From NCBI GenBank assembly GCA_964358335.1, contig CAYHOW010000002.1, positions 1 to 33,948 on the forward strand: a DNA stretch of 33,948 nucleotides. The letters run 5' to 3'. Source of the stretch: Candidatus Woesearchaeota archaeon (GTDB lineage Archaea; Nanobdellota; Nanobdellia; SCGC-AAA011-G17; GW2011-AR17). A program made the position numbers and the translations under genes. This document shows, piece by piece, positions 974-22,734 of this stretch (positions within the stretch are counted from its first letter, which is position 1; every line of letters begins with the position of its first letter). The notes beneath the pieces are model-generated. The model saw nothing but the letters and a program-made list of their open reading frames with translations, ran no database searches and was not told the DNA's origin.

Positions 974-1154
974 TGGATTTTATCATTGGAAGAATGGGTT
1001 AATAAATTGCGATGTAGATTTTTCGGAAGGGCTGCGGCGGGGTCGGAGAATGCAGGGGTTGTAGTCGGAAAAAGCAATATGTTTATATATTGAGAAATGA
1101 ATTTCAATAGGGTTATGGCCACTGATGGGATGGCTATGCGGGAAAGGTGAGGAC

Positions 1155-1574
1155 ATGCTGATAAAAGAAGTGTTTGCTGGATTTTTAAAGGAACAGAAGG
1201 GGAATGTGTCCCTTAAGACTTACAAGGAATATGAGACTGTCATCGGTTTTTTTGGGGACTGCCTTGATGGCTATGCGTGGAATACGTTAGATGATGACAA
1301 GGCCTATGAGGAAGCCCAGCTAAAAAAATTGGCTTTCATGGATATATACGACCACACTTACATTTGGGATAATGTTGGCGAATTTTTGGATTACTTCATC
1401 CCCAGAAAGGTCAATTGGGGCGATACGTTCGTATTAAAGACGTGCCCGAGAGTGGTAAGGGGCCTGCTTAAATGGATGAGGGAAAGGAAGCTGCTGGATA
1501 AGACTGATGAGGAGATAATAGGGGCATGCGAGAACCAGACTTGGGATGATAGCCTAGAGGAGATGGGGTTCTAA
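1155..1574 (+). CDS. Hypothetical helical protein (ORF track start 1125; 1155 preferred)
   Basis: Open frame; aggtgagg SD-like motif just before ATG 1155; tttatata at 1082-1089 upstream. Confidence 0.65.
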   Translation: MLIKEVFAGFLKEQKGNVSLKTYKEYETVIGFFGDCLDGYAWNTLDDDKAYEEAQLKKLAFMDIYDHTYIWDNVGEFLDYFIPRKVNWGDTFVLKTCPRVVRGLLKWMRERKLLDKTDEEIIGACENQTWDDSLEEMGF

Positions 1575-1575
1575 G

Positions 1576-1728
1576 ATGGCAGGCCAAAAGGCGTCGGGTG
1601 GCGCGAATTTGGGGTTTGAGCAGAAGATGAAGAGATTGACTGCTGAACTTTCAGAGCAGATGAGGGAAGGCAAGAAGCTGGATGAAGAAATAAAGAATAA
1701 TCTGAATAGTCTGGGCTGGAATATTTAG
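1576..1728 (+). pseudogene. Internally deleted type I methyltransferase gene (50-aa HsdM N-terminus/C-terminus fusion)
   Basis: MAGQKASGGANLGFEQK-MKRLTAELSEQMREGKKLDEEIKNNLNSLGWNI*. ANLGFE.K resembles a common HsdM N-terminus and FE.KMKRLT.EL.EQ...LD.EI..NL..LG a common HsdM C-terminus. Confidence 0.75.
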
Positions 1729-1729
1729 C

Positions 1730-3052
1730 ATGAACAAAAAAGACCTAGTAGATTTAATCAAAACAGGAGAAGGGCTTACTCTTGAGTTTAAGGAGAATAT
1801 AGGCTCTAATCTTGGGAAAGAAATATGCTCCTTTGCCAATTCTCAAGGAGGAAAAATAATCTTGGGAGTTAAAGATAATGGCGAAATTTTAGGAATCAAC
1901 GCCACAAATTCATTAAAATCACAAATCCAAAGCTTTGCAAGAAATATCGACCCTGCGCTTTCTGTTGAAATCGAAGAAGTCGAAAATTTACTAGTCATTT
2001 ATATCCCTGCGGGAGAGAAGAAACCTTATTCTGTAAACGGCCAATTCTTTTTGAGGATAGGGGCAAACTGCCAGCAGTTAAACCGTGATGAAATAAAAGA
2101 GTTTTTCCAAAATGAGAATTTGATTTTGTTTGATAGTAAACCCAATAAGGAGTTTAATCTTGATACAGATTTTGATGGGCATAAATTCAAAAGTTTCCTG
2201 GAATCTGCAAAGATTACAGACAACCTAAGTAGAAAAGAAACCTTAAGAAACCTATTCCTTTTGGATAAGGGCTATTTAAAAAATGCAGGGGCATTATTCT
2301 TTTGCCATGGGGTTACAAAATTCTTTTTGGGTGCGACTGTATCTTGCGTGCTATATCAAGGAGTAAATAAGGCAAATATTCTTGACAAAAAGGAGTATAA
2401 TGGTGATATTATTTCAAATTATGAAAATGCTTTGACCTATACAATCTCCAAGCTTAATACTAACTATATTATTAAAAGAGAAAGAACTGAAAGGCTGGAA
2501 CTGCCTGAAGAAGCACTTAGAGAAGCAATCATTAATGCAATAGTGCATAGAGACTATTTTTCAACAGGCCATATACAGATTGATGTCTTTTTGGACAGGG
2601 TTGAAATAAGCAACCCTGGCGGGCTTGTTAAGGGGCTTAGCAAAAAAGACTTTGGAAAGGTAAGCCTGCCGCGTAACCCTCTTCTCATGGATTTAATGTT
2701 GAGGGTAAATAAAGTTGAAAAGGTCGGCTCAGGCATTGGCAGAATTAGGGATTCAATGAAATCTTATAATCTGGGGGTAGAATTCAAAAGCACTGAATTT
2801 TTCACTGTAATTCTCGGAAGGCCTACCCCCCAAGCTACCCCCCAAGCTACCCCCCAAGCTGCCCTGACTGAGCTTGAAGGTAAAATAGTTGCAGAGATTA
2901 AGGCAAATCCAAAAATATCAAGAATGGAGTTAGCCAAAGTGATAGGTGTAAGTTCTGATACTATCAAAGAATACTTGGAAAAACTGAAGTCTAAAAAAGC
3001 AATAATACGAGTTGGCAAAACCAGTGCTGGCCGCTGGGAAGTAGTCGGATGA
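1730..3052 (+). CDS. Schlafen/AlbA_2 + HATPase_c_4 (RecG-C-like) + C-terminal HTH protein
   Basis: GEGLTLEFKE, SFANSQGGKIILGVKDNG (AlbA_2); ALREAIINAIVHRDY, EISNPGG, RNPLL, VEKVGSGI (HATPase_c_4); C-terminal wHTH ending G.W. Confidence 0.9.
   Translation: MNKKDLVDLIKTGEGLTLEFKENIGSNLGKEICSFANSQGGKIILGVKDNGEILGINATNSLKSQIQSFARNIDPALSVEIEEVENLLVIYIPAGEKKPYSVNGQFFLRIGANCQQLNRDEIKEFFQNENLILFDSKPNKEFNLDTDFDGHKFKSFLESAKITDNLSRKETLRNLFLLDKGYLKNAGALFFCHGVTKFFLGATVSCVLYQGVNKANILDKKEYNGDIISNYENALTYTISKLNTNYIIKRERTERLELPEEALREAIINAIVHRDYFSTGHIQIDVFLDRVEISNPGGLVKGLSKKDFGKVSLPRNPLLMDLMLRVNKVEKVGSGIGRIRDSMKSYNLGVEFKSTEFFTVILGRPTPQATPQATPQAALTELEGKIVAEIKANPKISRMELAKVIGVSSDTIKEYLEKLKSKKAIIRVGKTSAGRWEVVG
2823..2864 (+). 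repeat. In-frame 12-bp tandem repeat (ctaccccccaag x3 plus partial), encoding TPQA
   Basis: Directly visible; lies in the linker before the HTH. Confidence 0.92.
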
Positions 3053-3318: not shown

Positions 3319-6033
3319 ATGAATGAAGCGCAAACTAGGGAACAAGTTATTGATAAGCAGCTGAAAGCTAGGGGCTGGCTAAAGAGCTATATCAAGGAAG
3401 AAGTTAATGCAATTGGATCTAATTTCAAGGCTAAAGATTATGTCCTCTCTAAGGGCAGAGGTGATGATTCTGGAAGATTCATTGATTATCTGTTATTGGC
3501 TGAAGATAATTCTCCCCTTGCATTAATAGAAGCCAAAAAATCATCAGTTTCGGAAGAGAATGGAAGGATTCAGGCGAGGACGTATCTGAAAGACATTGAA
3601 AGTCAAACTGGAGAAAAGATACCTATTTTTTTGACGAATGGCAATAATTGGCTGTTAATCGACGAAGATGGCGAACGCCGCATCAGCGGGCCATTATCCC
3701 AGCCAGACCTGCAGAGAAGAATGGAGCTGCATAGGAAAAGAAGGGACCCTACAAAGATAAGCATTGAAAGGATTGTCAATCGCCCACGAAGCATCCTTGT
3801 AGTTAAGCAGTTAATGGAGCATATCCAAAAAGGGCATAGGTCAGCGTTAATCTCGATGGCAACTGGAACTGGTAAAACTAGGGTTGCCATGGCCATGATT
3901 GATGTTTTGCTTAGAGCGAACATTATCAGGAATGTCCTGTTTATTGCGGATAGGATAGCTTTGACCAATCAGGCCAAGTCTGCCGGGTTTCAGGAATTCT
4001 TCAGGTCAGAGGCAGTGATTGACTTGAGGGAAAATCCCGAAAGCTTCCCTAATGGGCTTTATGTCACTACGGTCCAGACCTTGAGGGTTCCAAAGAAGAA
4101 TAAGTTTTATGAGCATTTCAGCCCGGGCTTTTTTGACCTGATTATTTTCGATGAGGCCCATAGGTCAATCTATGATCCTAACAAGGAAGTTTACAGGTAT
4201 TTTGACGCAATCAAGATTGGATTGACCGCAACGCCGTCATCGGCCGAGGATAGGAACACGTTTGAATTGTTTGGCTGTAAAGGGAATAAGCCGACAATTG
4301 AATATTCTTATGAGGAAGCAATCAGGGATGGCGTGCTAGTGCCTTATAATGCACAAATCATTGACACAAAAGTATTATCTTTGGGCATTGAAGGTGCAAC
4401 ATTATCTAAGGAATTAAAAAGCCAACTAATAAGGCAAGAAGAAGATCCTCGATATACAATGCTTCCTGGATCTGCGTTTGCTAAAGTATTTATGGACGAT
4501 AAGACCAACGAGCTGATAGTCAGGGAATTCCTGAACAGATGCTATAAGTCCGACGAGGGAAAGCCAGCAAAGACCATCTTTTTTTGCGCTAATATCTCCC
4601 ATGCGAAGCGCATTAAGAAAATATTCGATAAGCTGGATCCTACGTTAGGCAATGATGTTCAGCCCATCGTCTCTGAAGATTACAGGTATACTGATGAGAT
4701 TGCAAGATTCAAGCTGGATTCAGAGCCGAGAATAGCATTGTCTGTTGGGGTTTTAGATACTGGCGTGGACATTCCAGAAGTGTGCAACCTGGTCTTTGCC
4801 AAGCCGGTATTTTCTGGAATTAGGTTCTGGCAGATGCTTGGAAGGGGGACAAGGAATCTAAGCGCGTGCAAGCATAAGGAATGGCTGCCGAATAGGGAGA
4901 AAAATGATTTCTTGATACTGGACTTCACTATTGGCGGGCATTCAAACGTCAAAGAGCATAACTTGAAAGAGGCGAAAGAGGCCAAGGTTGGGATAGATGC
5001 ATTGACAAGGATTTTCTTGAATCGGGTTGAGCTATTAAACAAGAGACTGGACCCTAAACAAAGGTCATTTATCGAGGATAAGATTATCGAGGAAGTCGAT
5101 GCGCTAAATAAGGACTCGTATATTGTCCGCGAGAAACTGCCCATAATCAGGAAATTGGTTTCTAGAAGGTTTGACCTGAAAGAATACCTTAAGGAATTAA
5201 AAAATGAGATTGCTCCCTTGATTTCGCTCAATCCCGGAAAAGATTCGCTGGTCACTTCGTTCATACTGCAGATTGAAAAGCTGTTCGCATCCATAATTGA
5301 TGAAGATAAGGAAAAAATATACAAAATAAGCCGGGAAGCCAGGGAGAAAATGGAAAATATCCTGCAGAAGGGCCATTTGGAGACTGTACAGCGCAAAAAA
5401 GAAAGCATAATGAGAGTATTCCATGATAAATTCTGGGACGAGCTGGCCTTTGAGGATGTCGAATTTATTATTAAGGAATTAGCCCCGCTAATGGTTTACT
5501 ATGAACAGAACCCTAAACGGCTTATCCAAATAGATGCGCCGGATTTAGTCTTGAAAGTGGAGGATTTCAAGAAGGAAGTCGTGGAAGACAAGGAATTAAA
5601 AAGGTTCGTTGAAACGAATCCCCTTATAAGGAAGATTAGGGATGGGGAAGGTGTGACTCCTGCTGAATTGCTTAAGCTTGAAGAGCAATTGCATGCGCTT
5701 AGGCCCGAGATAACCATTGACAATGTCCAAAGGATACGCAAGATTGACTTCCTGCTGTTTTTAAGGAACATATTGGGCCTGAAGCAGGAGTATGACCCGC
5801 AAGAATTGATTGAGAGGGAGTTTGACAAGCACATTATCGATAGAAATAAGGATTATAATTCCGAGCAGATAAAGTTCCTTCAGGTCCTGAAAAAAGTGTT
5901 TGCTAGGACTAAGCGCATAGAGTTGAAGGACTTCACGGTTCCGCCATTATCCAACGAAAGGCCGCTTGACAAGTTCCAGGCATCCGAGCTGCAGGAGATA
6001 GTGGTGAGGTGCAATAGGATAAAAATGAAATAG
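3319..6033 (+). CDS. hsdR: Type I restriction enzyme R subunit (EcoEI-like)
   Basis: IDYLL..IEAKK nuclease motif, MATGTGKT Walker A, DEAH, GLTATP, DTGVD, QMLGRGTR, EcoEI_R_C-like tail. Confidence 0.95.
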   Translation: MNEAQTREQVIDKQLKARGWLKSYIKEEVNAIGSNFKAKDYVLSKGRGDDSGRFIDYLLLAEDNSPLALIEAKKSSVSEENGRIQARTYLKDIESQTGEKIPIFLTNGNNWLLIDEDGERRISGPLSQPDLQRRMELHRKRRDPTKISIERIVNRPRSILVVKQLMEHIQKGHRSALISMATGTGKTRVAMAMIDVLLRANIIRNVLFIADRIALTNQAKSAGFQEFFRSEAVIDLRENPESFPNGLYVTTVQTLRVPKKNKFYEHFSPGFFDLIIFDEAHRSIYDPNKEVYRYFDAIKIGLTATPSSAEDRNTFELFGCKGNKPTIEYSYEEAIRDGVLVPYNAQIIDTKVLSLGIEGATLSKELKSQLIRQEEDPRYTMLPGSAFAKVFMDDKTNELIVREFLNRCYKSDEGKPAKTIFFCANISHAKRIKKIFDKLDPTLGNDVQPIVSEDYRYTDEIARFKLDSEPRIALSVGVLDTGVDIPEVCNLVFAKPVFSGIRFWQMLGRGTRNLSACKHKEWLPNREKNDFLILDFTIGGHSNVKEHNLKEAKEAKVGIDALTRIFLNRVELLNKRLDPKQRSFIEDKIIEEVDALNKDSYIVREKLPIIRKLVSRRFDLKEYLKELKNEIAPLISLNPGKDSLVTSFILQIEKLFASIIDEDKEKIYKISREAREKMENILQKGHLETVQRKKESIMRVFHDKFWDELAFEDVEFIIKELAPLMVYYEQNPKRLIQIDAPDLVLKVEDFKKEVVEDKELKRFVETNPLIRKIRDGEGVTPAELLKLEEQLHALRPEITIDNVQRIRKIDFLLFLRNILGLKQEYDPQELIEREFDKHIIDRNKDYNSEQIKFLQVLKKVFARTKRIELKDFTVPPLSNERPLDKFQASELQEIVVRCNRIKMK

Positions 6034-6103: not shown

Positions 6104-6499
6104 ATGCTTAATAAGCCGCTAAGAATCCAAGAGAACAAAGTTGTGATGGCAAAACTTCCTCGTGAAGAGTTTATCAAGCTCCAGAAGCATTGCGCTGTGA
6201 AGAATGAGTCTGTCAATGCTGTCGTTCGCAAGGCAGTGATGAATGAGATTGAGACTCCTATCCCTCACATGCTTGCGGGAAAGAACTTGTTTTCTTATAA
6301 CAAATACAAAGACAATTTTAGCTGGAGAGTTGTTTTGGATAATGGCTTGAGGGTTGACATAGAAGATGATTTATCTGCTGAGTATGTTTCGCAATTGTTT
6401 GAATCAATAAAACAGGCGGTTGATGAACGAGAGACCTACATCAAGAAAGAAAAGGATGGCGTAGCTATACCGAGTAAATTAGTGAGGAAAGGGTTATGA
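6104..6499 (+). CDS. Hypothetical protein with possible N-terminal ribbon-helix-helix domain
   Basis: VVMAKLPREEFIKLQKHC...SVNAVVRKAV fits a beta-helix-helix pattern; ATGA-coupled to next gene. Confidence 0.6.
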   Translation: MLNKPLRIQENKVVMAKLPREEFIKLQKHCAVKNESVNAVVRKAVMNEIETPIPHMLAGKNLFSYNKYKDNFSWRVVLDNGLRVDIEDDLSAEYVSQLFESIKQAVDERETYIKKEKDGVAIPSKLVRKGL

Positions 6500-7110
6500 G
6501 CTTAGAAACAAATTTTTTTATTAATAATTGGGCATTCATTATCCCTATAATTTTATCAATAATTGCAATTGTTTTCACTGCATTTAAAGATTTCATACTC
6601 CCTTGGTTTTTTAAGCCAGAATTAGAGATAACTTATGGCAAAAAAGAACCATATAATAGACAGGTACCTATTATTGAATCTAATTCAGTAAATGTAGGTT
6701 TTTTTTATAGATTTAAAATAAGAAATATTGGCAAAAAAACGGCAAAAAATTGCAGATGCCAAGTTTACTCTATCAAAAATAAAAGAGGCAACGAATTGGA
6801 TTTACAGGGATTTCCTCTTAAATGGGTCAGTAGGCCAGACTCAAAAGAAAGGTTAAATATTTCACACGGAGAAAGCGAATTTGTAGACTTAGCAAATACA
6901 CGTATAGATAGTGTAGGATATTTTTATTTAGAACCATATCATAATGTGCCTATTGGAATGAATAATCAAGTTTCCCTTGACTATTATGCTCTGAAAATAA
7001 TCATAAGCGGAGACAATTTTAAGCCGTATTTTGCAACCTTTAGAATAAATGGGCAACCAAAGGAAAAACATATTTTAGAAATGTTCTTAAAAAGTGTGGC
7101 GAGAAAATGA
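6496..7110 (+). CDS. Hypothetical protein with N-terminal transmembrane helix
   Basis: WAFIIPIILSIIAIVFTAF hydrophobic segment, then beta-rich domain (IRNIGKKTAKNC); ATGA overlaps at both ends; AT-rich. Confidence 0.75.
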   Translation: MSLETNFFINNWAFIIPIILSIIAIVFTAFKDFILPWFFKPELEITYGKKEPYNRQVPIIESNSVNVGFFYRFKIRNIGKKTAKNCRCQVYSIKNKRGNELDLQGFPLKWVSRPDSKERLNISHGESEFVDLANTRIDSVGYFYLEPYHNVPIGMNNQVSLDYYALKIIISGDNFKPYFATFRINGQPKEKHILEMFLKSVARK

Positions 7111-8312
7111 AAGCTAAAAATCTACCAGAAGGATGGAAGAAAGTTGAACTTTGGAATCAAGAATATTTTACTATTTTATCTAGCGGCATAGATAAATTTA
7201 AAGGAGAAAAAGAATATTTATCAACCGAGTCAGTTAAAGGAACTAAGATTGAGAAAATTGAATCCATAATAACTTATAAAGATAGGCCCTCAAGAGCAAA
7301 TATGCAACCTGTCCTAAATTCGGTCTGGTTTGCAAAAATGCAAGCAACTTTAAAGGTTTATTCTTTTGATGAAGAAAACAAAGATGAAATAGGGCGATAT
7401 GTTTTATCTACTGGTTTTGCAGGAATTAAAGTAAATGAAACTCTTGTTTCACCCAAATATTTAAGATTAATCCTAACATCTCAAGATTTTAATGAACTTA
7501 AAGATAAGCTTTGTACTGGTTCAACACAAAGAGGAATAAATAATCAATCAATTGAAACGATATCTTTGGTTATCCCCCCACTCTCAACCCAGCAAAGAAT
7601 CGTCTCAATCTTGGAAAAAGCAGAGCAGACGAAAGAAATGCGGAAAGAGGCAGACGAATTGACAAAAGACTTATTGAAAGCTGTCTTTATGGAGATGTTT
7701 GGAAATGTTGCTAAAAATAATAAAAAATGGCAAACTATGCAAGCAGAAGAACTATTTGATATGAAACTAGGGAAAATGCTTTCAGCGGCAAATTATACTG
7801 GGAAATACTTAAAACCCTATTTAAGAAATATTAATGTTCAATGGAATTATTTAGATTTATCAGATGTTAAAAAAATGGATTTTAATTCTGAAGACTTTAA
7901 ACGGTATGAACTTAAAAAAGGAGACATACTAGTATGTGAAGGCGGAGAAGTTGGAAGAACAGCAATATACAATGGAGAAATTCCTAATTGCTGTTATCAG
8001 AATGCATTGCATAGATTAAGAATCAAAAACCAAAGTGTTAATCCTTTTTATTTTATTTATTATATGATCTTTGCTGCAGAATATGGATTACTTAAACAAA
8101 GCACTATACAAGTAACTATAGCACATTTCACGGCTGAAAAATTTAAAAGATTAAAAATTATGTGTCCACCTCTTCCTCTCCAAGATAAATTCGCCTCAAT
8201 AGTCAAAGAAGTTGAATCAATGAAAGAGCAGCAGAAGCATTCAAAAGAGCATATTGACAATATGTTTGATGCTTTAATGCAGAAGGCATTTAAGGGGGAA
8301 ATTCATGCCTGA
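7107..8312 (+). CDS. hsdS: Type I R-M specificity subunit
   Basis: LPEGW start, two TRDs, PPLSTQQRIV and PPLPLQDKFA conserved regions, QKAFKGEI end. Confidence 0.95.
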   Translation: MKAKNLPEGWKKVELWNQEYFTILSSGIDKFKGEKEYLSTESVKGTKIEKIESIITYKDRPSRANMQPVLNSVWFAKMQATLKVYSFDEENKDEIGRYVLSTGFAGIKVNETLVSPKYLRLILTSQDFNELKDKLCTGSTQRGINNQSIETISLVIPPLSTQQRIVSILEKAEQTKEMRKEADELTKDLLKAVFMEMFGNVAKNNKKWQTMQAEELFDMKLGKMLSAANYTGKYLKPYLRNINVQWNYLDLSDVKKMDFNSEDFKRYELKKGDILVCEGGEVGRTAIYNGEIPNCCYQNALHRLRIKNQSVNPFYFIYYMIFAAEYGLLKQSTIQVTIAHFTAEKFKRLKIMCPPLPLQDKFASIVKEVESMKEQQKHSKEHIDNMFDALMQKAFKGEIHA

Positions 8313-10317
8313 AGATAATAAAAAACAAAGTAATCATTTAATTTCTATCGGAACAGATGGGGCTAAGAAGGTTCTTCATAGATATGATTATAAGAAGGCA
8401 ATTACCGAGTTTATTTGGAATGGTTTTGATGCTGGAGCAACCATAGTTAAAGTAAGTCTAAAACTTAATGATATTGGGATACTCAAAGAAATTATTATTG
8501 AAGATAATGGCAGTGGGATTGTTCATTCCGAACTTAATGACAAATTTAAGCCATTTTATGAATCAATCAAGGAAGATGAAGAGTATGAATCACATTCATC
8601 AAAATGTCATGGACGTAATGGATTAGGCAGACTTACATTTTTCACGTTCGCAAACTTTGCTGAATGGATAACAACTTATCAAAATAGAGATAAAAAATAC
8701 TGTTATTCTATATCTATCAAAGCTAATGAATTGAAAATATTTGAAAATTGCACTCCAAAGGAAGTAACGCAGAAGTCAATAGGAACAATCGTAAAGTTTA
8801 CAGGGATATTATCGTTTATGAACAATAAAGATATCATTGAGGAAATCATAAATTACTTGAAAGAAGAATTTTGCTGGTATCTTGAATTGAATTCCAATAG
8901 AGGAAGTAAAATAATTTTAAACGACAAAGAATTAGCTCATGATTCTAACATTAGAGAAACTGAAGAAAAAGACCTAAATATTCAGGATGTGAAGTTCAAG
9001 TTACATTATGTTGGATGGAAAAAACTACACAAAAGTGAGTTGTCAAAAATCTATTATCTTAAAGAAGAGAAAGATGAAACCTACAAGGAGTTTACACAAC
9101 TAAACCGCAAGAGTGATGGTTTTTTTCATAGTGTTTATGTCTCTAGTGTTTATTTTGATAGCTTTAAGTTTGAATCATCAAAAAATCAGTCAACATTGGG
9201 TGTAAAAGGCAAATCTGATAAGATTTTTAGATTATTGCTTGAGCAAATTAGAGATTTTCTCCTAATTAAAAGAAAACCGATTTTAAAAGAAAATTCAAAA
9301 GAATTCTTCAAAACAAACTATGAAAAAGAAGGCATCGTCACTTCTAAAGGAAAAGTTGGTCTTGAAAAATATAAAGCACAAGAAGTAAAAACTGCTATTG
9401 AAGAGATTTGGATAATTGAGCCAAAAATATTTAGTGGCTTGAATCATGAACAAAAAAAAGTAATGGCCAATTTTATTGAATTATCTCTGGACACTGGTGA
9501 GAGAGATAGGCTGATTGACATTATTGACAAGATTGTAAAATTGCAGCCGGCTGAAAGAGAACAATTGTATAATATATTTAAAGATGCAGAATTGTCATAT
9601 ATAATACGAATGTTGAACATGCTAACTACACGATTCAAAAACGTTGAGTGGTTAAAGCAAATAATTTTGAGGCAGGAACTTAATGCGAAGGAAGTTGCTC
9701 ATGTCCAAGGCATGATCGAAAAAATGACTTGGTTTTTTGGAGAGCAGTATGCAATGCTTGGCTCCGTTGAAGATAACTTTGAGAAGTTGTTAAAAAATTA
9801 TCTTATAAACCAAGATGATTTTTCGGAAATAACTCCTATGGCTGATCAAAACAAGAAGAAAGAAGTTGACTTGTTCTTATGCCGGAAAATGATAGACTCC
9901 AATTCGGTTGATAACTTAATCGTTGAATTGAAGAGACCATCTGTAAAATTAGGAAAAAAGCAAATTGAACAAATCGAAACATATATGCTTACTATTCTAA
10001 AAGAACCGCAATTTAACAATGTGTCAAATGCGACATGGACTTTTATTTTAGTTGGGACACATTTTGATACTGATGGCTACACAGAAAGTAGAATTGCGAG
10101 CCTGAAAAATCAAGGTATAAACGGATTAATTTTGCAAGACAAGAATTATAAGATTATTGTAAAAAAGTGGAGTGATTTGATGACTGATTTTGAAATACAA
10201 CATAATTTCCTACAGACAGAATTAAAATTAAATAGAGATAAGCTAGTCGCAAAAGAAAATAATGCAGATGAAATTATTAAAAAAGCGACTTTTGGACAAT
10301 ATTGGACAGATAAATGA
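8305..10317 (+). CDS. GHKL (HATPase_c_3/MORC-like) ATPase fused to a C-terminal PD-(D/E)xK-like nuclease
   Basis: EFIWNGFDAGA (N box), IEDNGSGI (G1), GRNGLGRL (G2), GTIV; C-terminal EVDLFL...IVELKRP...QIETY. Confidence 0.8.
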   Translation: MPEDNKKQSNHLISIGTDGAKKVLHRYDYKKAITEFIWNGFDAGATIVKVSLKLNDIGILKEIIIEDNGSGIVHSELNDKFKPFYESIKEDEEYESHSSKCHGRNGLGRLTFFTFANFAEWITTYQNRDKKYCYSISIKANELKIFENCTPKEVTQKSIGTIVKFTGILSFMNNKDIIEEIINYLKEEFCWYLELNSNRGSKIILNDKELAHDSNIRETEEKDLNIQDVKFKLHYVGWKKLHKSELSKIYYLKEEKDETYKEFTQLNRKSDGFFHSVYVSSVYFDSFKFESSKNQSTLGVKGKSDKIFRLLLEQIRDFLLIKRKPILKENSKEFFKTNYEKEGIVTSKGKVGLEKYKAQEVKTAIEEIWIIEPKIFSGLNHEQKKVMANFIELSLDTGERDRLIDIIDKIVKLQPAEREQLYNIFKDAELSYIIRMLNMLTTRFKNVEWLKQIILRQELNAKEVAHVQGMIEKMTWFFGEQYAMLGSVEDNFEKLLKNYLINQDDFSEITPMADQNKKKEVDLFLCRKMIDSNSVDNLIVELKRPSVKLGKKQIEQIETYMLTILKEPQFNNVSNATWTFILVGTHFDTDGYTESRIASLKNQGINGLILQDKNYKIIVKKWSDLMTDFEIQHNFLQTELKLNRDKLVAKENNADEIIKKATFGQYWTDK

Positions 10318-10326
10318 GGTGCTACA

Positions 10327-10385
10327 ATGCTAAACTCACAAACCAAAATCAAGAATAAGAAGACTTTTAGAGGTGAACTAATATG
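10327..10385 (+). repeat. Spacer A: hsdM 5' stub + hsdS 3'-like stub
   Basis: atgctaaactcacaaaccaaaatcaagaat resembles 14221-14249; followed by aag aag act ttt aga ggt gaa cta (KKTFRGEL). Confidence 0.7.
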
Positions 10386-10640
10386 GGCGAAGAGCACTCC
10401 ATAAAATTATTCGAAAGCAAGAAAGTTAGGGTTCAATGGGTTGAGGAAGATCAAAAGTGGTACTTTTCAATAATAGACGTAATAGCCATACTTACAGATA
10501 GCCCCAATCCAAGGAAGTATTGGAGCGTCCTTAAAACTAGGCTAAAGGCAGAAGGAAGCCAGTTGGCTACAAATTGTAGTCAACTGAAAATGGAGTCCTT
10601 AGATAGAAGATAAGCCAACAAAAAAGAAGGTAAGCTAAAA
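10383..10640 (+). pseudogene. Internally deleted Bro-N gene (5' part plus last ~24 bp)
   Basis: 76-aa ORF (10383-10613) closely similar to the N-terminus of 11577-12455; 10617-10640 matches 11499-11522 at 23/24 nt. Confidence 0.8.
10560..10586. repeat. 27-bp Bro-N palindrome, copy 1
   Basis: cagttggctaca-aat-tgtagtcaactg, 11/12 symmetric. Confidence 0.85.
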
Positions 10641-10686
10641 ATGCCGTACTCAGAAATAAAATCAATAAAAAGGAGGCGAACTCATG
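10641..10686 (+). repeat. Spacer B: degenerate hsdM 5' stub + short hsdS 3'-like stub
   Basis: atgccgtactcagaaataaaatcaa (MPYSEIKS vs MLDSELKS) then ggc gaa ctc atg (GEL). Confidence 0.6.
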
Positions 10687-11520
10687 GATGAAAATAATGC
10701 GCTCGTGGTATTTCAAACCAAAAAGATAAGAAGGGCCTGGCACAATAATGAATGGTATTTCTCTGTTGTTGATGTGGTTGAGGCTCTAACCGACAGCCCA
10801 AGCCCAAGGCAGTATTGGGGCGTATTAAAGGGGAGGGAAAGTCAGTTGTTAACATTTTGTTTACAACTGAAATTGCTTTCGGCAGATGGCAAATATTATG
10901 CTTCAGACTGCGCTAATACCAAGAATATATTTAGGATCATTCAATCTATTCCATCCCCTAAAGCTGAGCCCTTCAAGCAATGGCTGGCCCAAGTGGGTTA
11001 TGAGCGAGTTCAAGAAATAGAAAATCCCGAGTTAGCCACAAAGCGCATGAAAGAGATATATAAGGCAAAAGGCTATTCAGAAGATTGGATTGAGAAAAGA
11101 GTAAGGGGCATAGCTGTAAGGGATGAATTAACCGATGAATGGAAAAAACGAGGAGTACAAGAAGAAAGAGAATTCGCAATCTTAACTGCTGAAATATCTA
11201 AAGCAACATTTGGGATGACTCCTGGCGAATATCAACAGTTCAAGGGATTAAAAAAAGAAAACCTAAGGGACCATATGAACGATTTAGAATTGATATTTTC
11301 CATGCTTGGCGAAAGGGCTACTACAGAGATAGCCAGAACAAAGGATACGCTGGGGTTTGTAGAAAATAAGAATGCCGCCATCAAAGGCGGGAATATTGCA
11401 GGAGAGGCGCGAAATAAACTTGAGGTTGAAACAAAAAGAAAGGTAATTAGCCCTGAAAATTATCTTGATGCTCCAGAAAAAGAGAAAAGAAAGCAAATAA
11501 CAAAAAAGAAGGTAAACTAA
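10684..11520 (+). CDS. Bro-N domain DNA-binding protein (antirepressor-like)
   Basis: FQTKKIRRAW...WYFSVVDVV..LTDS...RIIQSIPSPKAEPFKQWLA...NLRDHM. Confidence 0.88.
   Translation: MDENNALVVFQTKKIRRAWHNNEWYFSVVDVVEALTDSPSPRQYWGVLKGRESQLLTFCLQLKLLSADGKYYASDCANTKNIFRIIQSIPSPKAEPFKQWLAQVGYERVQEIENPELATKRMKEIYKAKGYSEDWIEKRVRGIAVRDELTDEWKKRGVQEEREFAILTAEISKATFGMTPGEYQQFKGLKKENLRDHMNDLELIFSMLGERATTEIARTKDTLGFVENKNAAIKGGNIAGEARNKLEVETKRKVISPENYLDAPEKEKRKQITKKKVN
10843..10869. repeat. 27-bp Bro-N palindrome, copy 2
   Basis: cagttgttaaca-ttt-tgtttacaactg, 11/12 symmetric. Confidence 0.85.
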
Positions 11521-11521
11521 A

Positions 11522-11579
11522 ATGCTAGACTCAGAACTGAAATCAAAAATAAGAAGCCTTTCAAAGGTGAACTAACATG
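11522..11579 (+). repeat. Spacer C: hsdM 5' stub + hsdS 3'-like stub
   Basis: atgctagactcagaactgaaatcaaaaat (MLDSELKSKI, same peptide as the HsdM start) then aag aag cct ttc aaa ggt gaa cta aca tga (KKPFKGELT*). Confidence 0.85.
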
Positions 11580-12455
11580 AACAAAGAGCACTCCATAAAA
11601 TTATTCGAAAACAAAAATGTAAGGGTTGAATGGAACCCAGCAGAGGAAAAGTGGTACTTCTCAATAGTTGACGTAATAGCTATACTTACAGATAGCCCCA
11701 ATCCAAACAATTATTGGAAAGTGCTGAAATTCAGGCTGAAAAATGAGGGAAATGAGTCGGTTACAAAATGTAACCAACTGAAACTGCAGTCATCAGACGG
11801 AAAATTTTATCTCACAGATGTCGGCGATACAGAGCAAATCCTAAGATTAGTGCAGTCAATACCTTCAAAGAAAGCAGAGCCGTTCAAGGCATGGCTGGCG
11901 AAGGTAGGCAACGAGAGGATAAATGAGACGTACGACCCCGAGCTTGCATTCGACAGGGCGATGAAGACATACCTCCAAAAAGGGTATTCAAAAGAGTGGA
12001 TAAACCAGAGATTAAAGACAATTGAAGTAAGGAAAGAGCTTACAGACGAATGGAACAGGGCGGGGATAGAAAAAGACTCAGACTTTGCCATTCTCACTAA
12101 CGAGATCACCAAGGCGTGGTCTGGCAAGACAGTAGCTGAATACAAGCAGCTGAAGAACCTTAAGAAGGAAAATCTCCGGGACAACATGACTAATATGGAG
12201 CTTGTCTTGAATATGCTTGCGGAAGCCACAACATCTGAAATATCAAAGAATGAGAGCCCTTCGCAATTTGAAGAAAGCAGGAATATAGCTATCAGGGGAG
12301 GGACTGTTGCGGGAAACACAAGGAAAGAGATTGAGAGGCAGCTTGGAAAAACCATAATCAGCCCGAAAAACGCAAAAGATAACATGCTGGAATTATCCAA
12401 GGAAGATAAATTGGGTATTGAACATAAGCCCAAAACGAAAAGGAAGGATGACTAA
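11577..12455 (+). CDS. Bro-N domain DNA-binding protein (paralog of 10684-11520)
   Basis: WYFSIVDVIAILTDS...RLVQSIPSKKAEPFKAWLA...NLRDNM. Confidence 0.88.
   Translation: MNKEHSIKLFENKNVRVEWNPAEEKWYFSIVDVIAILTDSPNPNNYWKVLKFRLKNEGNESVTKCNQLKLQSSDGKFYLTDVGDTEQILRLVQSIPSKKAEPFKAWLAKVGNERINETYDPELAFDRAMKTYLQKGYSKEWINQRLKTIEVRKELTDEWNRAGIEKDSDFAILTNEITKAWSGKTVAEYKQLKNLKKENLRDNMTNMELVLNMLAEATTSEISKNESPSQFEESRNIAIRGGTVAGNTRKEIERQLGKTIISPKNAKDNMLELSKEDKLGIEHKPKTKRKDD
11754..11780. repeat. 27-bp Bro-N palindrome, copy 3
   Basis: gagtcggttaca-aaa-tgtaaccaactg, 10/12 symmetric. Confidence 0.8.
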
Positions 12456-12456
12456 A

Positions 12457-12678
12457 ATGCTAGACTCGGAACTGAAATCAAAAATTAACCTGTTCTGGAA
12501 CAAATTCTGGAGCGGTGGAATCTCAAACCCTCTCCATGAGATAGAGCAGATGTCTTATTTGATCTTCATGAAAGGACTAGAAGATGAGGATGTCGCAAGA
12601 GAGCAGAACGCCAAATTAAAGGAGGAAGGTTTTGAGTTGTACGATAAAATCGTACAGCTGAAATTAGTGAGGGCATAG
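12457..12678 (+). pseudogene. Truncated hsdM 5' copy (54 codons) fused in frame to an internal Bro-N fragment
   Basis: 50/54 aa identical to the start of HsdM 14221, then KEEGFELYDKIVQLKL, which aligns with Bro-N KAEGSQLATNCSQLKM / KNEGNESVTKCNQLKL. Confidence 0.85.
12634..12660. repeat. 27-bp Bro-N palindrome, copy 4
   Basis: gagttgtacgat-aaa-atcgtacagctg, 10/12 symmetric. Confidence 0.8.
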
Positions 12679-12683
12679 CCAAC

Positions 12684-12698
12684 CGAAACTTTTATAAA
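12684..12698 (+). promoter_or_regulatory. Putative BRE/TATA promoter of the MNT-HEPN operon
   Basis: cgaaact-tttataaa about 30 nt before ATG 12730. Confidence 0.5.
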
Positions 12699-12729
12699 TG
12701 ATACTAAACTAGTACCAATTGATACCAAA

Positions 12730-13323
12730 ATGGAAACAAGAATAAAGATTATCGATGCATTGGACAAAAACAAGAAAGGGGTCCATATTCGCGAGCTTGC
12801 AAGACTTGTAGAAACCAGCTATAATAATACCGTCAGGAATATAAAAATACTTGAAAAAGAAAATGCCATCAGAAAAGAAAAAGAGGCAAACCTAATCAAA
12901 ATAAGGCTGAAAAATAGCCTGATGACAGTCGCCTACTTAAAGCAGGCGCATACTGAAAACTTCTTAAAATTGCCGAAAAAGATAATTATGGCAATAACTG
13001 AATTTCTTAATGAATTACAGGAAAAGCCGCTAATCGCACTTATTTTTGGCTCATTTGCCAAAGGAAGCTATGGCTCCGGCTCAGATATTGACATATTGCT
13101 TGTCTTTCAAAAAATAATCAATCAGAATGATATTGAAAATACTGCAAAAAGGATAAGCATGAGAACAAACACTCGGCTAAGCCCTGTGTATGTGGATTAT
13201 GAAAGCTTTCAAAAAAACTTCTTAAGCAAGGATCATGCTTTCTCAAATGAAATCAGGCAGAATGTAATCATTTTTACAGGAATAGAGCATTATTACCGCC
13301 TTTCGTGGGAGTTTTTAGAATGA
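12730..13323 (+). CDS. wHTH + minimal nucleotidyltransferase (MNT) antitoxin
   Basis: N-terminal HIRELARLV HTH; IFGSFAKG...SDIDILLV pol-beta NTase motif. Confidence 0.88.
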   Translation: METRIKIIDALDKNKKGVHIRELARLVETSYNNTVRNIKILEKENAIRKEKEANLIKIRLKNSLMTVAYLKQAHTENFLKLPKKIIMAITEFLNELQEKPLIALIFGSFAKGSYGSGSDIDILLVFQKIINQNDIENTAKRISMRTNTRLSPVYVDYESFQKNFLSKDHAFSNEIRQNVIIFTGIEHYYRLSWEFLE

Positions 13324-13877
13324 AATTTGATACAAAAAGATTAACTAAAGAAAAGGAATATTGTGAAGAATTGTTTAATTATTATATTAAAATAAAAACT
13401 CTCAGGAAAACAAATCCGGATTATAAAAAGTATATTGATAAAGCTCTCTCAAATCTTGAGTTGGCAAACTTTTTATTGGAAGAGCATAGCTTTTCAATCA
13501 AAGAAAAGCTGCCAGGTAGAAAATACTTTGATTGGTGCATAACCATTTATTACTATTCCATCTATCATACTTCCCTTGCCTTGCTTGCCAAGTTAGGATA
13601 TAAGTCAAATAGCCATTTGGCTACTTTATCAGCTATCACCTTATTTTACTATCATAAAGACAATGTGCTACAGAAAGAGGACATTGACTTTCTCATGGAA
13701 AAGGTAAATCTTGAAGAAAAAGAGATAGATTTTGTAATCGAATCAAAAGACTTAAGGGAAAGGGCTTGTTATGGAGTCGATGAATTATTTAATATTTCAA
13801 TTGCAAGGCTGCTTCAAACGCAGACAGCTGAATTTGTAAATAAGATAAAAGAATTGCTCATAGGTGAAGACAGATGA
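13320..13877 (+). CDS. HEPN domain protein (toxin partner); ATG 13320 preferred over 13305
   Basis: W..TIYYYSIYH..LALL, SH, LRERACY (Rx4Y); ATGA overlap with MNT gene. Confidence 0.82.
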   Translation: MKFDTKRLTKEKEYCEELFNYYIKIKTLRKTNPDYKKYIDKALSNLELANFLLEEHSFSIKEKLPGRKYFDWCITIYYYSIYHTSLALLAKLGYKSNSHLATLSAITLFYYHKDNVLQKEDIDFLMEKVNLEEKEIDFVIESKDLRERACYGVDELFNISIARLLQTQTAEFVNKIKELLIGEDR

Positions 13878-14221
13878 ATATTTTCAAAATAGAATATTAC
13901 TGGCCTGAGGATGAGCATGGCGAGACTTTGCTTGGAAAAGATATAGAGCAAAAGGAATTTGAACAGGACTTGATAAAAGCAAAAGAATTTGCAGAAAGCC
14001 TTATCGGAAAAGAGATTAAAGAGGGAGAATATTTGGGCAAAGGATATAGAATTGATTGCTTGCCGGAATATTATGAGCAAATTATTTGGTTTCTCGTTGA
14101 AAAATTAGGGTATATTAAATGTGGGTTTGATAATAACATTAGTTATAATATAGATGATTCTTATGGTAAAAAGATATCAATAAGCAAATCAGAAAAAAAG
14201 ATCAAAAGGAGTGAAATCTAA
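13874..14221 (+). CDS. Hypothetical protein
   Basis: 115 aa, translationally coupled at both ends. Confidence 0.65.
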   Translation: MNIFKIEYYWPEDEHGETLLGKDIEQKEFEQDLIKAKEFAESLIGKEIKEGEYLGKGYRIDCLPEYYEQIIWFLVEKLGYIKCGFDNNISYNIDDSYGKKISISKSEKKIKRSEI

Positions 14222-15696
14222 TGCTGGACTCGGAACTAAAATCAAAAATCAACCTGTTATGGAACAAATTCTGGAGCGGCGGCATCTCAAACCCTCTCCA
14301 GGCAATAGAGCAGATGTCTTATTTGATCTTCATGAAGCAGCTGGAAGATGAGGATGTTGCAAGAGAGCAGAACGCAAAACTCTTGGGGAATAGGCATGTA
14401 TCCATTTTCAAGGGGAATGAAGGCTGCAAATGGTCTAAATGGACAGAAATGCCCGCAGAGCCGATGCTAGAGCACGTAAGGGATAAGGTATTCCCTTTCT
14501 TAAGGAAGTTAAACGGCGGAGAGAAATCCATCTATAACAAGTACATGAAAAACGCCTCTTTCTCAATACCCACTGCATCACTATTGGCAGAAGCTGTAAA
14601 GATAATCAATGACATGCACATTAAGGAGCAGAACAGGGATACCAAGGGGGACCTCTACGAATATCTTCTAGGCCAGCTGGCAACCGCAGGAAAGAACGGC
14701 CAATTCAGGACCCCAAGGCATATAATCAAAATGATGGTCGAGCTCTTAAACCCTAAATACGGGGATAAGGTCTGCGATCCAGCTTGCGGAACAGCAGGCT
14801 TTTTAGTTTCCGCCTTTGAGCATATCCTAAAGAGCAATACCTCTTCCGACCTGGTAAGGGAAGGAAACTTTGCAGGGGACAAGCTCAATGAAAACCAGTG
14901 GAGAATATTAAGGGATGAAACCCTTTACGGCTATGATTTTGACGAAGTCATGCTTAAAATCTCTTTGATGAACTTGATGATGCACGGGATTAACAACCCG
15001 AACGTTGACCAAAAGAATACATTGTCAAAAAGGTTTGACGAGGCAAACTGCTATGATGTAATCTTAGCAAACCCCCCATTCAAAGGGAGCATCGACGAGT
15101 CCGAAATAGGGGAAAACTTCAGGACACAGACCAAGAAGACAGAGCTGTTATTCCTGGAATTAATGTACAATCTGCTGACAAACAGCGGGAGATGCATCGT
15201 TATTGTTCCAGACGGGGTCTTATTCGGGAATTCAAAAGCGCATAAGAATATAAGGGAACTGTTGCTGGAAAAATGCAGGCTAGATGCCGTCATATCAATG
15301 CCCTCGGGCGTATTCAAGCCATATGCTGGGGTATCTACTGCGGTCCTTCACTTTACCAAAGGGGAGCCGACAAAAGAAGTCTGGTTCTATGGCATGGAAG
15401 CGGATGGATTCAGCCTGGATGACAAAAGAACAGAGCAGGCGGATAGAAATGACATCCCTGACATAATTGAAAGGTTCAGGAATAGGCATAAGGAAAAGCC
15501 GACAGACAGGAAGAAAAAATGCTTCCTTGTGCCTGTCAAGGAAATCAAGGGCAACAATTATGACCTGAGCATCTCTAAGTACAAGGAAATAGAGTATGAG
15601 GAAGTGAAGTACGAGAAGCCGGAATTAATCAAAAAGAAGATACTGGAGCTGGAAGCCAATATTATTGAGCAATTGAAGGGATTGAAGATTGCTTGA
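14221..15696 (+). CDS. hsdM: Type I R-M N6-adenine methyltransferase subunit
   Basis: FWSGGISNPL, GQFRTPRHII, DPACGTAGF (motif I), NPPF (motif IV), VPDGVLFG. Confidence 0.96.
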   Translation: MLDSELKSKINLLWNKFWSGGISNPLQAIEQMSYLIFMKQLEDEDVAREQNAKLLGNRHVSIFKGNEGCKWSKWTEMPAEPMLEHVRDKVFPFLRKLNGGEKSIYNKYMKNASFSIPTASLLAEAVKIINDMHIKEQNRDTKGDLYEYLLGQLATAGKNGQFRTPRHIIKMMVELLNPKYGDKVCDPACGTAGFLVSAFEHILKSNTSSDLVREGNFAGDKLNENQWRILRDETLYGYDFDEVMLKISLMNLMMHGINNPNVDQKNTLSKRFDEANCYDVILANPPFKGSIDESEIGENFRTQTKKTELLFLELMYNLLTNSGRCIVIVPDGVLFGNSKAHKNIRELLLEKCRLDAVISMPSGVFKPYAGVSTAVLHFTKGEPTKEVWFYGMEADGFSLDDKRTEQADRNDIPDIIERFRNRHKEKPTDRKKKCFLVPVKEIKGNNYDLSISKYKEIEYEEVKYEKPELIKKKILELEANIIEQLKGLKIA

Positions 15697-21243: not shown

Positions 21244-22734
21244 ATGGCATTATCGACAAAAGACAGGCACAAGCTGAAGAAGTTTATAAGGACTTTGGAG
21301 GCCATAAGGGGAAGGCACACGGAGCTGGTTAGCGTGTACGTCCCTGCCGGATATGACATGAACAAGATAATAGGCCATCTGTCCCAGGAGCAGGGCACCG
21401 CCGAAAATATAAAGGACAAGACCACAAGGACCCATGTCATAGACTCATTGGAGAGGATGATAAGGCACTTGAGGCTGTTCAAGCAGACGCCGAAGAACGG
21501 CTTGGTCGCTTTTTCCGGCGACGCTTCTGACAAGGAAGGCAGGCCCGACATCCAGGTATGGAGCATCGAGCCTCCGGAGCCGATAAACATCAGGCTTTAC
21601 AGGTGCGACCAGACGTTCATACTCGACCATCTTAAATCCATGATGGATGTGAAGGAAGTCTATGGGCTGATAGTCGTCGACAGGAGGGAAGGCAACATAG
21701 GATACCTGAAGGGCACGCAGATACAGGAAGTCGCCTCTATGACTTCCGGCGTCCCCGGCAAGACAAGGGCCGGAGGCCAGTGCATGCATCCCGACACCGC
21801 CGTGACTTTGGCTGACGGCCAGTACGTGAGGATAGCCGAGCTGATGGAAGGCGACGACGTGATGAGCTACGATTTCGCTACCAAAGAGTTCGTGCCTTCT
21901 AAAGTCAAGAAGGTCTGGACGACTACTAAGGACAAGCTTTACACAATCAAGACATTGGAAGACGAGCTGCAGTGCTCGGCCGACCATATGCTATTCCTAT
22001 CTGACGGCATGGAAGTCGCCGCCGAGAATCTCAAGAAGGACATGCTTCTCATAGACGAGAACGGAAATCCGAAGAAAGTTGTTTCTGTGGCTGCCGAAGA
22101 CAGGCATCTTGATTTGGTAGACATAGAGGTGGAGAAGGGCAACTTCATTGCCGAAGGCATTGTCGTCCACAACAGCGCCCAGAGGTTTGCCAGGCTGAGG
22201 CAGGAAGCGGCGAAGGAGTTCTTCAGGAGGATCTCTGAGGTCGCGCAGAAGGAGTTCTTGGGCAAGAAGGAACTGAAGGGGATACTGCTTGGCGGGCCCG
22301 GGCCGACTAAGGAGATATACCTGGCGACAGGCGAGCTGAACAACGAACTGAAATTGAAAATCATAACCATCCAGGACCTTAGCTACACGGGCGAGTTCGG
22401 GCTGAGGGAACTGGTCGAGAAGAGCAGGGAGGCGTTGGCTAAGGAAGCGATAACTGAAGAGAAGGATATAATGGAGAAGTTCTTCAAGGGATTGGCCACA
22501 AGCTCGAACATGGTGGCGTACGGCAAGAAAGAGGTCGAGAAGGCTATGGAGCTGAAGGCTGTCGACTGCTTGCTTCTTTCTGAAGATTTGGATCCTGACT
22601 ATTCCGAGGCTATGGAAGCCAAGGCCGACGACATGGGCACTAAGGTCCAGATAATCTCCGTCGACACGCCTGAAGGCATGCAATTAAGAGATTTGGGTGG
22701 CATCGCCGCGTTCTTAAGGTATCCGCTGGAGTAG
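21244..22734 (+). CDS. prf1: Peptide chain release factor aRF1, intein-containing
   Basis: GRHTELVSVYVP, AENIKD (NIKS-like), YRCD, GGQ/SAQRFARLR, GGPGPTK, LGGIAAFLRY. Confidence 0.96.
   Translation: MALSTKDRHKLKKFIRTLEAIRGRHTELVSVYVPAGYDMNKIIGHLSQEQGTAENIKDKTTRTHVIDSLERMIRHLRLFKQTPKNGLVAFSGDASDKEGRPDIQVWSIEPPEPINIRLYRCDQTFILDHLKSMMDVKEVYGLIVVDRREGNIGYLKGTQIQEVASMTSGVPGKTRAGGQCMHPDTAVTLADGQYVRIAELMEGDDVMSYDFATKEFVPSKVKKVWTTTKDKLYTIKTLEDELQCSADHMLFLSDGMEVAAENLKKDMLLIDENGNPKKVVSVAAEDRHLDLVDIEVEKGNFIAEGIVVHNSAQRFARLRQEAAKEFFRRISEVAQKEFLGKKELKGILLGGPGPTKEIYLATGELNNELKLKIITIQDLSYTGEFGLRELVEKSREALAKEAITEEKDIMEKFFKGLATSSNMVAYGKKEVEKAMELKAVDCLLLSEDLDPDYSEAMEAKADDMGTKVQIISVDTPEGMQLRDLGGIAAFLRYPLE
21781..22173 (+). 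mobile_element. Mini-intein (131 aa, no homing endonuclease) inserted after GGQ
   Basis: Starts C(MHPDT), block B SADH, ends VDIEV...NFIAEGIVVHN followed by S+1; removal restores GGQSAQRF. Confidence 0.93.

Follow-up and report, generated by a model that had tools for sequence, protein, structure and literature searches.

In a 33,948-nucleotide (nt) stretch of the genome of a Candidatus Woesearchaeota archaeon (assembly GCA_964358335.1, contig CAYHOW010000002.1, positions 1 to 33,948; the whole stretch is called the window below), a complete type I restriction-modification (R-M) operon carries five or six extra units of defence-type genes, stacked as an array between hsdS and hsdM. The units are separated by short stubs of the two flanking genes, in which the start of hsdM is fused to the end of hsdS or stands as a lone truncated fragment. 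We establish that such scars recur in other loci, that the hsdS/hsdM junction is a hotspot for insertion and that the units are of mixed origin. In our view, the spacers are probably recombination scars: segments of related hsdS-X-hsdM operons would have been imported with an anchor in conserved hsd sequence at one end and an illegitimate joint at the other, after which the array would have partly decayed.

All three resident genes are open and co-oriented on the forward strand, namely hsdR (3319-6033; 904 amino acids (aa); Pfam ResIII, SWI2_SNF2, EcoEI_R_C and HSDR_N), hsdS (7107-8312; 401 aa; Methylase_S) and a full-length hsdM (14221-15696; 491 aa; N6_Mtase and HsdM_N). The hsdS product ends in QKAFKGEIHA* (8280-8312, with QKAFKGEI at 8280-8303), and the hsdS stop codon overlaps the ATG of the first cargo gene. 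A distance of 5.9 kb separates hsdS from hsdM, and every cargo gene within it is likewise encoded on the forward strand. The source genome is small, with 1.27 Mb in 161 contigs.

The initial annotation had reported that the start of hsdM recurs at 10327, 10641, 11522 and 12457, each time behind the end of a cargo gene, and our comparison bears this out. A 29-mer from the hsdM start matched at 11522 with 3 mismatches, at 12457 with 2 and at 14221, the gene itself, with 0, while shuffled sequences gave 0 matches. The copy at 10641 is more diverged (6/29 mismatches, or 5/27), and the copy at 10327 is weaker and contains a 1-nt insertion. The homology extends over whole units, since 10322-10611 and 11517-11805 are 78% identical over 290 nt. 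Each stub starts 1-9 nt past the stop codon of the preceding gene or gene relic.

Three of these stubs, all on the forward strand, are fused ones. In the first (J1, 10327-10382), a decayed hsdM start of ~30 nt with the 1-nt insertion is joined to an hsdS-end remnant coding for KKTFRGEL (10357), and the next ATG stands at 10383. The second (J2, 10641-10683) consists of a decayed hsdM start and an hsdS-end remnant that is worn down to GGCGAACTC (GEL), directly before the ATG at 10684. The third (J3, 11522-11576) has 29 nt of hsdM start fused to a remnant coding for KKPFKGELT* (11551); its mini-ORF (open reading frame) of 17 codons stops 1 nt ahead of the next ATG at 11577. The likeness of these peptides to the hsdS end, the lone GEL in the second stub and the cargo ATG directly behind each fusion had all been proposed before and were all found. 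The proposed stub length of ~29 bp is right for 11522; the copy at 12457 is longer, a forward-strand hsdM 5' fragment of 160 nt (12457-12616) with 90% identity to the resident hsdM start and a Pfam HsdM_N match. As separate observations on two of the stubs, the hsdM fragment in 12457-12665 breaks at ~nt 160 and continues in frame as nt 161-209 of a Bro gene, with the same offset from the start codon in both genes, which could be accidental or could point to aligned recombination, and one public sequencing run holds a contig with an extra T after 10340, inside J1, as fits a stub without coding constraint.

Two simpler origins of these features had been named at the outset, and neither agrees with the data. 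The FxGEL peptides might come from the GGTGA Shine-Dalgarno motif alone. Across the whole genome, however, 74 of the 2365 ATG ORFs of at least 80 aa have GGTGA within 20 nt upstream, and only 6 are preceded by FxGE[LIMV] within 15 nt of the ATG, two of which fall in this locus. Two FxGEL sites on C23 stand ahead of surface-protein-like ORFs, not R-M genes, and were set aside as background. The repeats might also be an assembly artefact, if the assembler had merged strain variants of a simpler locus at its repeated hsdM starts. The fragmentation of the assembly, the multiple copies of Bro genes in the community and a local rise in depth would suit such an error. Against it, independent Logan contigs, drawn from 4 runs in 2 studies (the source sample may be among them), cross the junctions at 10327, 11522, 12457 and 14221 with 0 differences (spans 9893-10494, 11426-11925, 11060-11777, 12132-12570, 12283-12654 and 13874-14334; no listed piece lies over J2 at 10641), and repeats of 29-60 nt at 72-90% identity are neither long nor similar enough to lead an assembler astray, so we give this explanation almost no weight. 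The initial annotation had suggested a look for reads that skip a cassette or close a circle; no such joint or circle occurs among the Logan contigs, which cannot reveal rare forms. Short contig "joints" of 66-339 nt within Bro genes, with sides of 26-34 nt, look like the Bro genes of other organisms and were discarded.

The cargo, all of it on the forward strand, consists of known or candidate defence families, and its antiviral role is putative. Cargo 1 (8305-10317, 670 aa) combines a GHKL-type ATPase (Pfam HATPase_c_3) with a C-terminal HSDR_N_2 nuclease-like domain, and in a search with defence models it obtained just a weak REase_II match. No homologue of it was found in 100 relatives. 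Of 400 other genomes from the phylum, 4 have one, in no case in an hsdS-hsdM context. Cargo 2 ("Bro2", 10383-10640) is a Bro4-type gene with an internal deletion, made up of a 76-aa N-terminal part (10383-10613) and a 24-nt relic of the 3' end (10617-10640). The former has 78% identity to the 5' part of Bro4, with stops in the tblastn alignment, and the latter is 96% identical to 11499-11522. Cargo 3 ("Bro3", 10684-11520, 278 aa) and cargo 4 ("Bro4", 11577-12455, 292 aa) are intact Bro-N proteins by Pfam, and both match the PADLOC candidate PDC-S13 over the full length (E 1.9e-120 and 1e-131, respectively). Behind the 160-nt hsdM fragment lies a Bro relic of 49 nt (12617-12665), equivalent to nt 161-209 of another Bro4-type gene; 46 of its 49 positions are identical to the gene of the related locus L044, and it is unlike the window's own Bro genes. 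Cargo 5 (12730-14221) comprises three genes, for a nucleotidyltransferase of 197 aa, a 190-aa protein and a 115-aa protein. The first is clearly a nucleotidyltransferase by Pfam and resembles PDC-M05A (E 5.6e-14), and in a comparison with MNT-HEPN pairs its 190-aa partner gave only a weak likeness to HEPN, below threshold (E 0.15). A TATA-like sequence, TTTTATAAAT, was noticed by eye near 12690, ahead of this unit. The PDC-S13 and PDC-M05A models presumably stem from Payne's work on embedded genes, and neither name appears in the main text of that preprint.

A second copy of the hsdS end at the 3' ends of the Bro genes, as a target duplication would leave, was also considered (AAGGTAAACTAAAATG against AAGGTGAACTAACATG). 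The likeness is short, the lysine-rich tails of other Bro4-type genes are different, and an hsdS remnant before hsdM is missing from most filled loci; the duplication was therefore rejected as unproven.

For comparison, 160 related loci were fetched by the likeness of their HsdM, as the best 80 of at least 560 matches in each of two collections. HsdM relatives with identity of at least ~58%, mostly archaeal, occur in the order hsdR-hsdS-hsdM, and those with at most ~56%, mostly bacterial, in the order hsdR-hsdM-hsdS. A full hsdM start was present in 151 loci, and in 86 of them an hsdS end lay upstream on the same strand. The junction was empty in 26 of these 86, held a gap of 193 nt in 1 and contained 370-3482 nt of cargo in 59. 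At 20 of the 26 empty junctions, the hsdS stop and the hsdM start overlap in the sequence ATGTTAG; a 7-nt overlap is the normal form of the operon. The gap in the window, 5908 nt, exceeds every other gap among the loci surveyed.

The cargo of the relatives belongs to families typical of defence or toxin-antitoxin genes, and 126 of its 132 ORFs are co-oriented with the hsd genes. The commonest families were NYN (8), HATPase_c_4 (6), AlbA_2 (5), Bro-N (4), SduA_C (Shedu; 3), Fic (2) and nucleotidyltransferase/HEPN (2), together with PRiA4_ORF3. The hsdS/hsdM junction is thus a recurrent insertion hotspot for defence-type genes. It is filled in 16 and empty in 1 of the DPANN-labelled loci, compared with 4 filled and 14 empty in other archaea (L119-L166), which, among genomes related to one another, is a trend and has no weight as a test. 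In methanogens (with Methanosarcina and Methanobacterium among the records), Nitrosotalea and other archaea, the junction is mostly empty. HsdM relatives with 79-90% identity are found in records of Nanoarchaeota, Methanosarcinales, Nanohaloarchaea, Bathyarchaeia and Nitrosotalea (L119-L126, L166), and the operon itself seems to move between archaeal phyla.

The scars are not peculiar to the window. Copies of a locus's own hsdM start were found inside the cargo of 6 of 60 filled loci (L057 being a further such locus), with 8 hits on the forward strand and 0 on the reverse, and shuffles predict 0.18; the underlying Hamming scan is blind to copies with indels, such as J1. Motifs of the hsdS end occurred 5 times in the forward frames of the gaps, against 1 time in the reverse frames. 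Taken together, hsd-end scars are present in ~10 of the 60 filled loci, which are the window, L044, L057, L073, L084, L093, L140, L151, L160 (by eye) and L161. Their hsdM stubs measure 19, 29, ~36, ~47-50, 112, 148 or 160 nt, with an overall range from 19 to ~175 nt. In L151, one unit retains long unfused flanks, in the order S-X-S'(110 nt, 84%)-Y-M'(148 nt, 93%)-Z-M. In the closest locus, L044 (HsdM 93% identical), hsdS is followed by an ORF of 61 aa, a Bro3-like gene, two ORFs of 98 aa and 331 aa, a fused stub, a Bro4-like gene and finally hsdM. This array differs from that of the window and yet ends in the same series of stub, Bro4 and hsdM, so related arrays differ by whole units.

Stubs also accompany cargo in other genomes. 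Orthologues of cargo 4 in other genomes (72-82% identity) have hsd-end stubs upstream, in the form of ~30 nt of hsdS end in L036 and of a decayed fused stub in L037 and L044. The three genes of cargo 5 recur in L034, outside any R-M locus, and are followed there by ~120 nt of hsdM start. In L035 (1118-2797), directly behind an AlbA_2-like gene, the first 41 codons of an hsdM continue in frame into a cysteine-rich ORF of 559 aa that is unrelated to hsdM. A search with HsdM found no full-length relative in the genomes of L034, L035, L036 and L037, only the short stub. Two details of such loci may be recorded here. Direct repeats of ~110 nt (2390-2500 and 3680-3790) flank the Bro4 orthologue with a decayed hsdM stub in L037, a genome of another family, and the AlbA_2-like cargo behind the hsdM stub of L084 (2407-4001) looks split into a 61-aa and a 457-aa ORF, through either a frameshift or a sequencing error.

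Several lines of evidence support a mixed origin of the units, with flanks drawn from hsdS-X-hsdM operons, and show that the array is not all one local duplication. Bro3 and Bro4 share only 49% identity, and each has relatives of 70-91% elsewhere. When compared with foreign hsdS ends, the hsdS remnants in J1 and J3 reach scores of 18-20. With the resident end they reach 10-11, and that end takes rank 49 (J1, 10357) and rank 36 (J3, 11551) of 87. The GC content at third codon positions (GC3) changes in blocks along the array and forms a mosaic, with 0.50 in hsdR, 0.23-0.28 in the 204-aa ORF, hsdS and cargo 1 (hsdS 0.24, cargo 1 0.28), 0.37-0.50 in Bro2 to Bro4, 0.30-0.39 in the three-gene unit and 0.57 in hsdM. 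The earlier proposal that each unit came from a different hsdS-X-hsdM locus is partly supported by these data and by the stub-bearing cargo elsewhere, but it does not extend to the three fused stubs of the window, which have one origin and do not represent three independent events.

How the units arrived may be pictured as follows. Between loci with otherwise different hsdS genes, the last ~125 nt of hsdS retain 80-84% identity, and hsdM is conserved throughout; both offer ready homology arms. Each gain would be the import of a piece of a related hsdS-X-hsdM operon, anchored by homology on one side, in the last ~125 nt of hsdS, in hsdR or in hsdM, and closed on the other by an illegitimate joint within the hsdM start or the hsdS end. 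A single event of this type could leave behind a fused hsdM-start/hsdS-end stub or else a truncated flank on its own, and a dedicated recombinase would not be required. The fused stub ahead of Bro4-type genes would have arisen once and then travelled with the gene, and later deletions would have eroded the array.

The stubs may persist for two reasons. The hsdS remnant brings the GGTGA that stands before the next ATG and may serve as the ribosome-binding site of that gene, and the short hsdM-start ORF may keep translation coupled along the operon. The mini-ORFs of the hsdM starts end between 2 nt before and 22 nt after the next start codon, which is suggestive of translational coupling and falls short of proof.

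Such a process resembles homology-facilitated illegitimate recombination, which has reportedly been described in transformable bacteria (by de Vries and Wackernagel and by Prudhomme et al., both in 2002) and to our knowledge has never been shown for these archaea. A homologous anchor combined with an illegitimate joint would likewise leave a truncated flank fused to resident sequence. Homology arms and truncated flanks of variable length are present in our loci, which may be products of this kind. A broader and much more tentative extension, which we consider possible though rather doubtful, is that the hsdS and hsdM ends act as portable homology arms for a recombinase-free exchange of cassettes across archaeal phyla. 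Each import would then add cargo on the hsdS-proximal side, possibly together with a new hsdS, so that selection for changed specificity would drag in defence genes, and the stubs would be kept as translation-coupling leaders. The outcome would be integron-like behaviour without an integrase, above all in the small genomes of DPANN archaea.

Several points weigh against recombinational import as the whole account. The route is inferred from its end products, with no event observed, and the related loci form a sample whose members are not independent of one another and include many short metagenome contigs. Where stubs occur outside an R-M context, they could be what is left of decayed operons instead of transferred units. 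Only 4 of 7 short stubs have their mini-ORF stop at -2 to +3 nt from the next ATG, which in AT-rich DNA is suggestive at most. The last 125 nt of hsdS have a GC3 of 0.51, against 0.24 in the rest of the gene and 0.28 in cargo 1, which leaves room for separate arrivals of hsdS and cargo 1. J1, J2 and J3 are homologous and share one breakpoint, so that local duplication of a single unit could account for three of the four stubs. Only 1 nt distinguishes the hsdM part of the stub at 11522 from that at 12457, and the nearest match of the 160-nt fragment is the resident hsdM, with 90% identity against at most 81% for 150 others, both of which fit a local origin. From the shared breakpoint, the 1-nt difference and the resident-like fragment, it follows that local duplication or unequal crossing-over also took part.

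A purely local history would have one hsdS-end/Bro/hsdM-start segment doubled by a single illegitimate joint and amplified by unequal crossing-over, after which the copies diverged and unrelated genes were inserted separately. Besides the features just given, the homology of J1 and Bro2 with J3 and Bro4, the state of J2 as a deleted version of the same junction and the similar Bro 3' ends before each stub speak for it. However, only J1/Bro2 and J3/Bro4 are each other's closest relatives; at 49% identity, Bro3 and Bro4 are far more distant than their relatives in other genomes, and a non-coding stub of 29 nt would not have kept 26/29 identity to hsdM over a divergence of that scale. Cargo 1 is unrelated and still is followed by the same stub, the fused stub with a Bro4-type gene has other neighbours in L044 and L037, and the hsdS remnants are nearer to foreign hsdS ends than to the resident one. 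We therefore hold an exclusively local history to be unlikely. A collapse of complete hsdS-X-hsdM modules in tandem, with deletions from one hsdM start to the next hsdS end, would leave fused stubs as well, and seems less probable still. Its raw material exists in L049 and L158, where two complete, diverged hsdM genes (45% and 62-69% identity to the query) follow one hsdS in tandem, and internal deletions are frequent in the array, as in Bro2 and in the hsdM fragment joined to the Bro relic. Yet the expected intermediate, hsdS-X-hsdM-hsdS-Y-hsdM, was seen in 0 of 86 loci, the separate and unfused S' and M' flanks of L151 surround one unit, and two steps are needed where one-sided recombination needs one.

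The initial annotation had favoured an integron-like array, and a dedicated system of this type would insert circles, joined from hsdM start to hsdS end, by means of a site-specific recombinase encoded elsewhere. Integron arrays are ordered, co-oriented series of mostly promoterless, exchangeable genes at one site, served by the integrase IntI and by attC hairpins. The window array is likewise ordered, co-oriented, mostly promoterless and confined to one site, its cassettes share a junction, and a circle would yield exactly the observed hsdM-start/hsdS-end joint. The machinery is what differs. In agreement with the earlier remark that no integrase is visible, a domain of an integrase, transposase or recombinase was found in 0 of 30 scanned ORFs of the window, a scan that did not take in the rest of the genome, and no recombinase was among the 25 commonest families of the 132 cargo ORFs. 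The stubs form no attC-like hairpins (five folds on both strands, z +0.47 to +1.13), no junction has an inverted repeat, and the breakpoints vary among loci. With no cassette-skipping contig either, the integron-like label is not supported and such a system is very improbable; exchange would rest on general recombination, as in the import of hsdS-X-hsdM segments that we prefer.

Under the term "guilt by embedding", Payne et al. (bioRxiv 10.1101/2024.01.29.577857) have described defence cassettes that lie inside operons of the type I R-M, BREX, DISARM and Hma systems. The window agrees with that work in having extra defence-type genes inside a complete type I R-M operon, with Bro3 and Bro4 matching PDC-S13 and the nucleotidyltransferase PDC-M05A. 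It differs in that stubs of the flanking genes record the route, that up to five or six units are stacked and that the operon has the archaeal hsdR-hsdS-hsdM form. The main text of the preprint offers a "genomic sink" as its sole idea for embedding and does not contain the word "recombination". A defence gene or gene pair that is co-transcribed between hsd genes is also known from PrrC in EcoprrI and from TgvAB in the type I operon of Vibrio cholerae VPI-2 (PMC11411939, PMC12707154). Those are single cassettes between hsdS or hsdM and hsdR, and the passages on them that we drew on describe neither duplicated hsd ends nor stacking. We found no description of hsd-end scars in the literature searched, to which the supplements of Payne et al. 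did not belong. From these sources, type I R-M operons with embedded defence cassettes are established.

The search for new immune systems now makes use of defence genes that lie inside restriction operons. The stubs in this locus are a physical record of the route by which such genes enter, and they point to ordinary recombination between related operons through conserved gene ends, not to a mobile element, which makes the route experimentally testable. In addition, further arrays can be found by a simple sequence signature, in which an hsd gene start runs into the end of its partner gene. In the DPANN archaea sampled, the junction is almost always filled, which suggests that much of their accessory defence is packed there.

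Other features of the neighbourhood are given for completeness. Two small ORFs of 131 aa and 204 aa, without a Pfam family, lie between hsdR and hsdS on the forward strand (6104-7110). By tblastn, the 131-aa ORF (6104-6499) has the same position between hsdR and hsdS in most of the related archaeal loci, and it may be an unrecognised accessory component. On the 5' side of hsdR (window 2-3052) are a YhcG/DUF1016 nuclease gene on the reverse strand, cut by the end of the window, and an AlbA_2/HATPase_c_4/HTH gene of a type that in relatives sits between hsdS and hsdM. Farther downstream, the eRF1 gene (21244-22734) is split by an intein (Intein_splicing, Hint). Stand-alone Bro-N/PDC-S13 genes (L004, L012-L016, L023, L025, L028, L029, L038 and L090) share an upstream element, CCACTTGCCA or TTGACA-like words followed by GCTTTATAAA just before the start, possibly a promoter that includes an operator; Bro copies within R-M operons lack this element and have an hsdS-end leader in its place.

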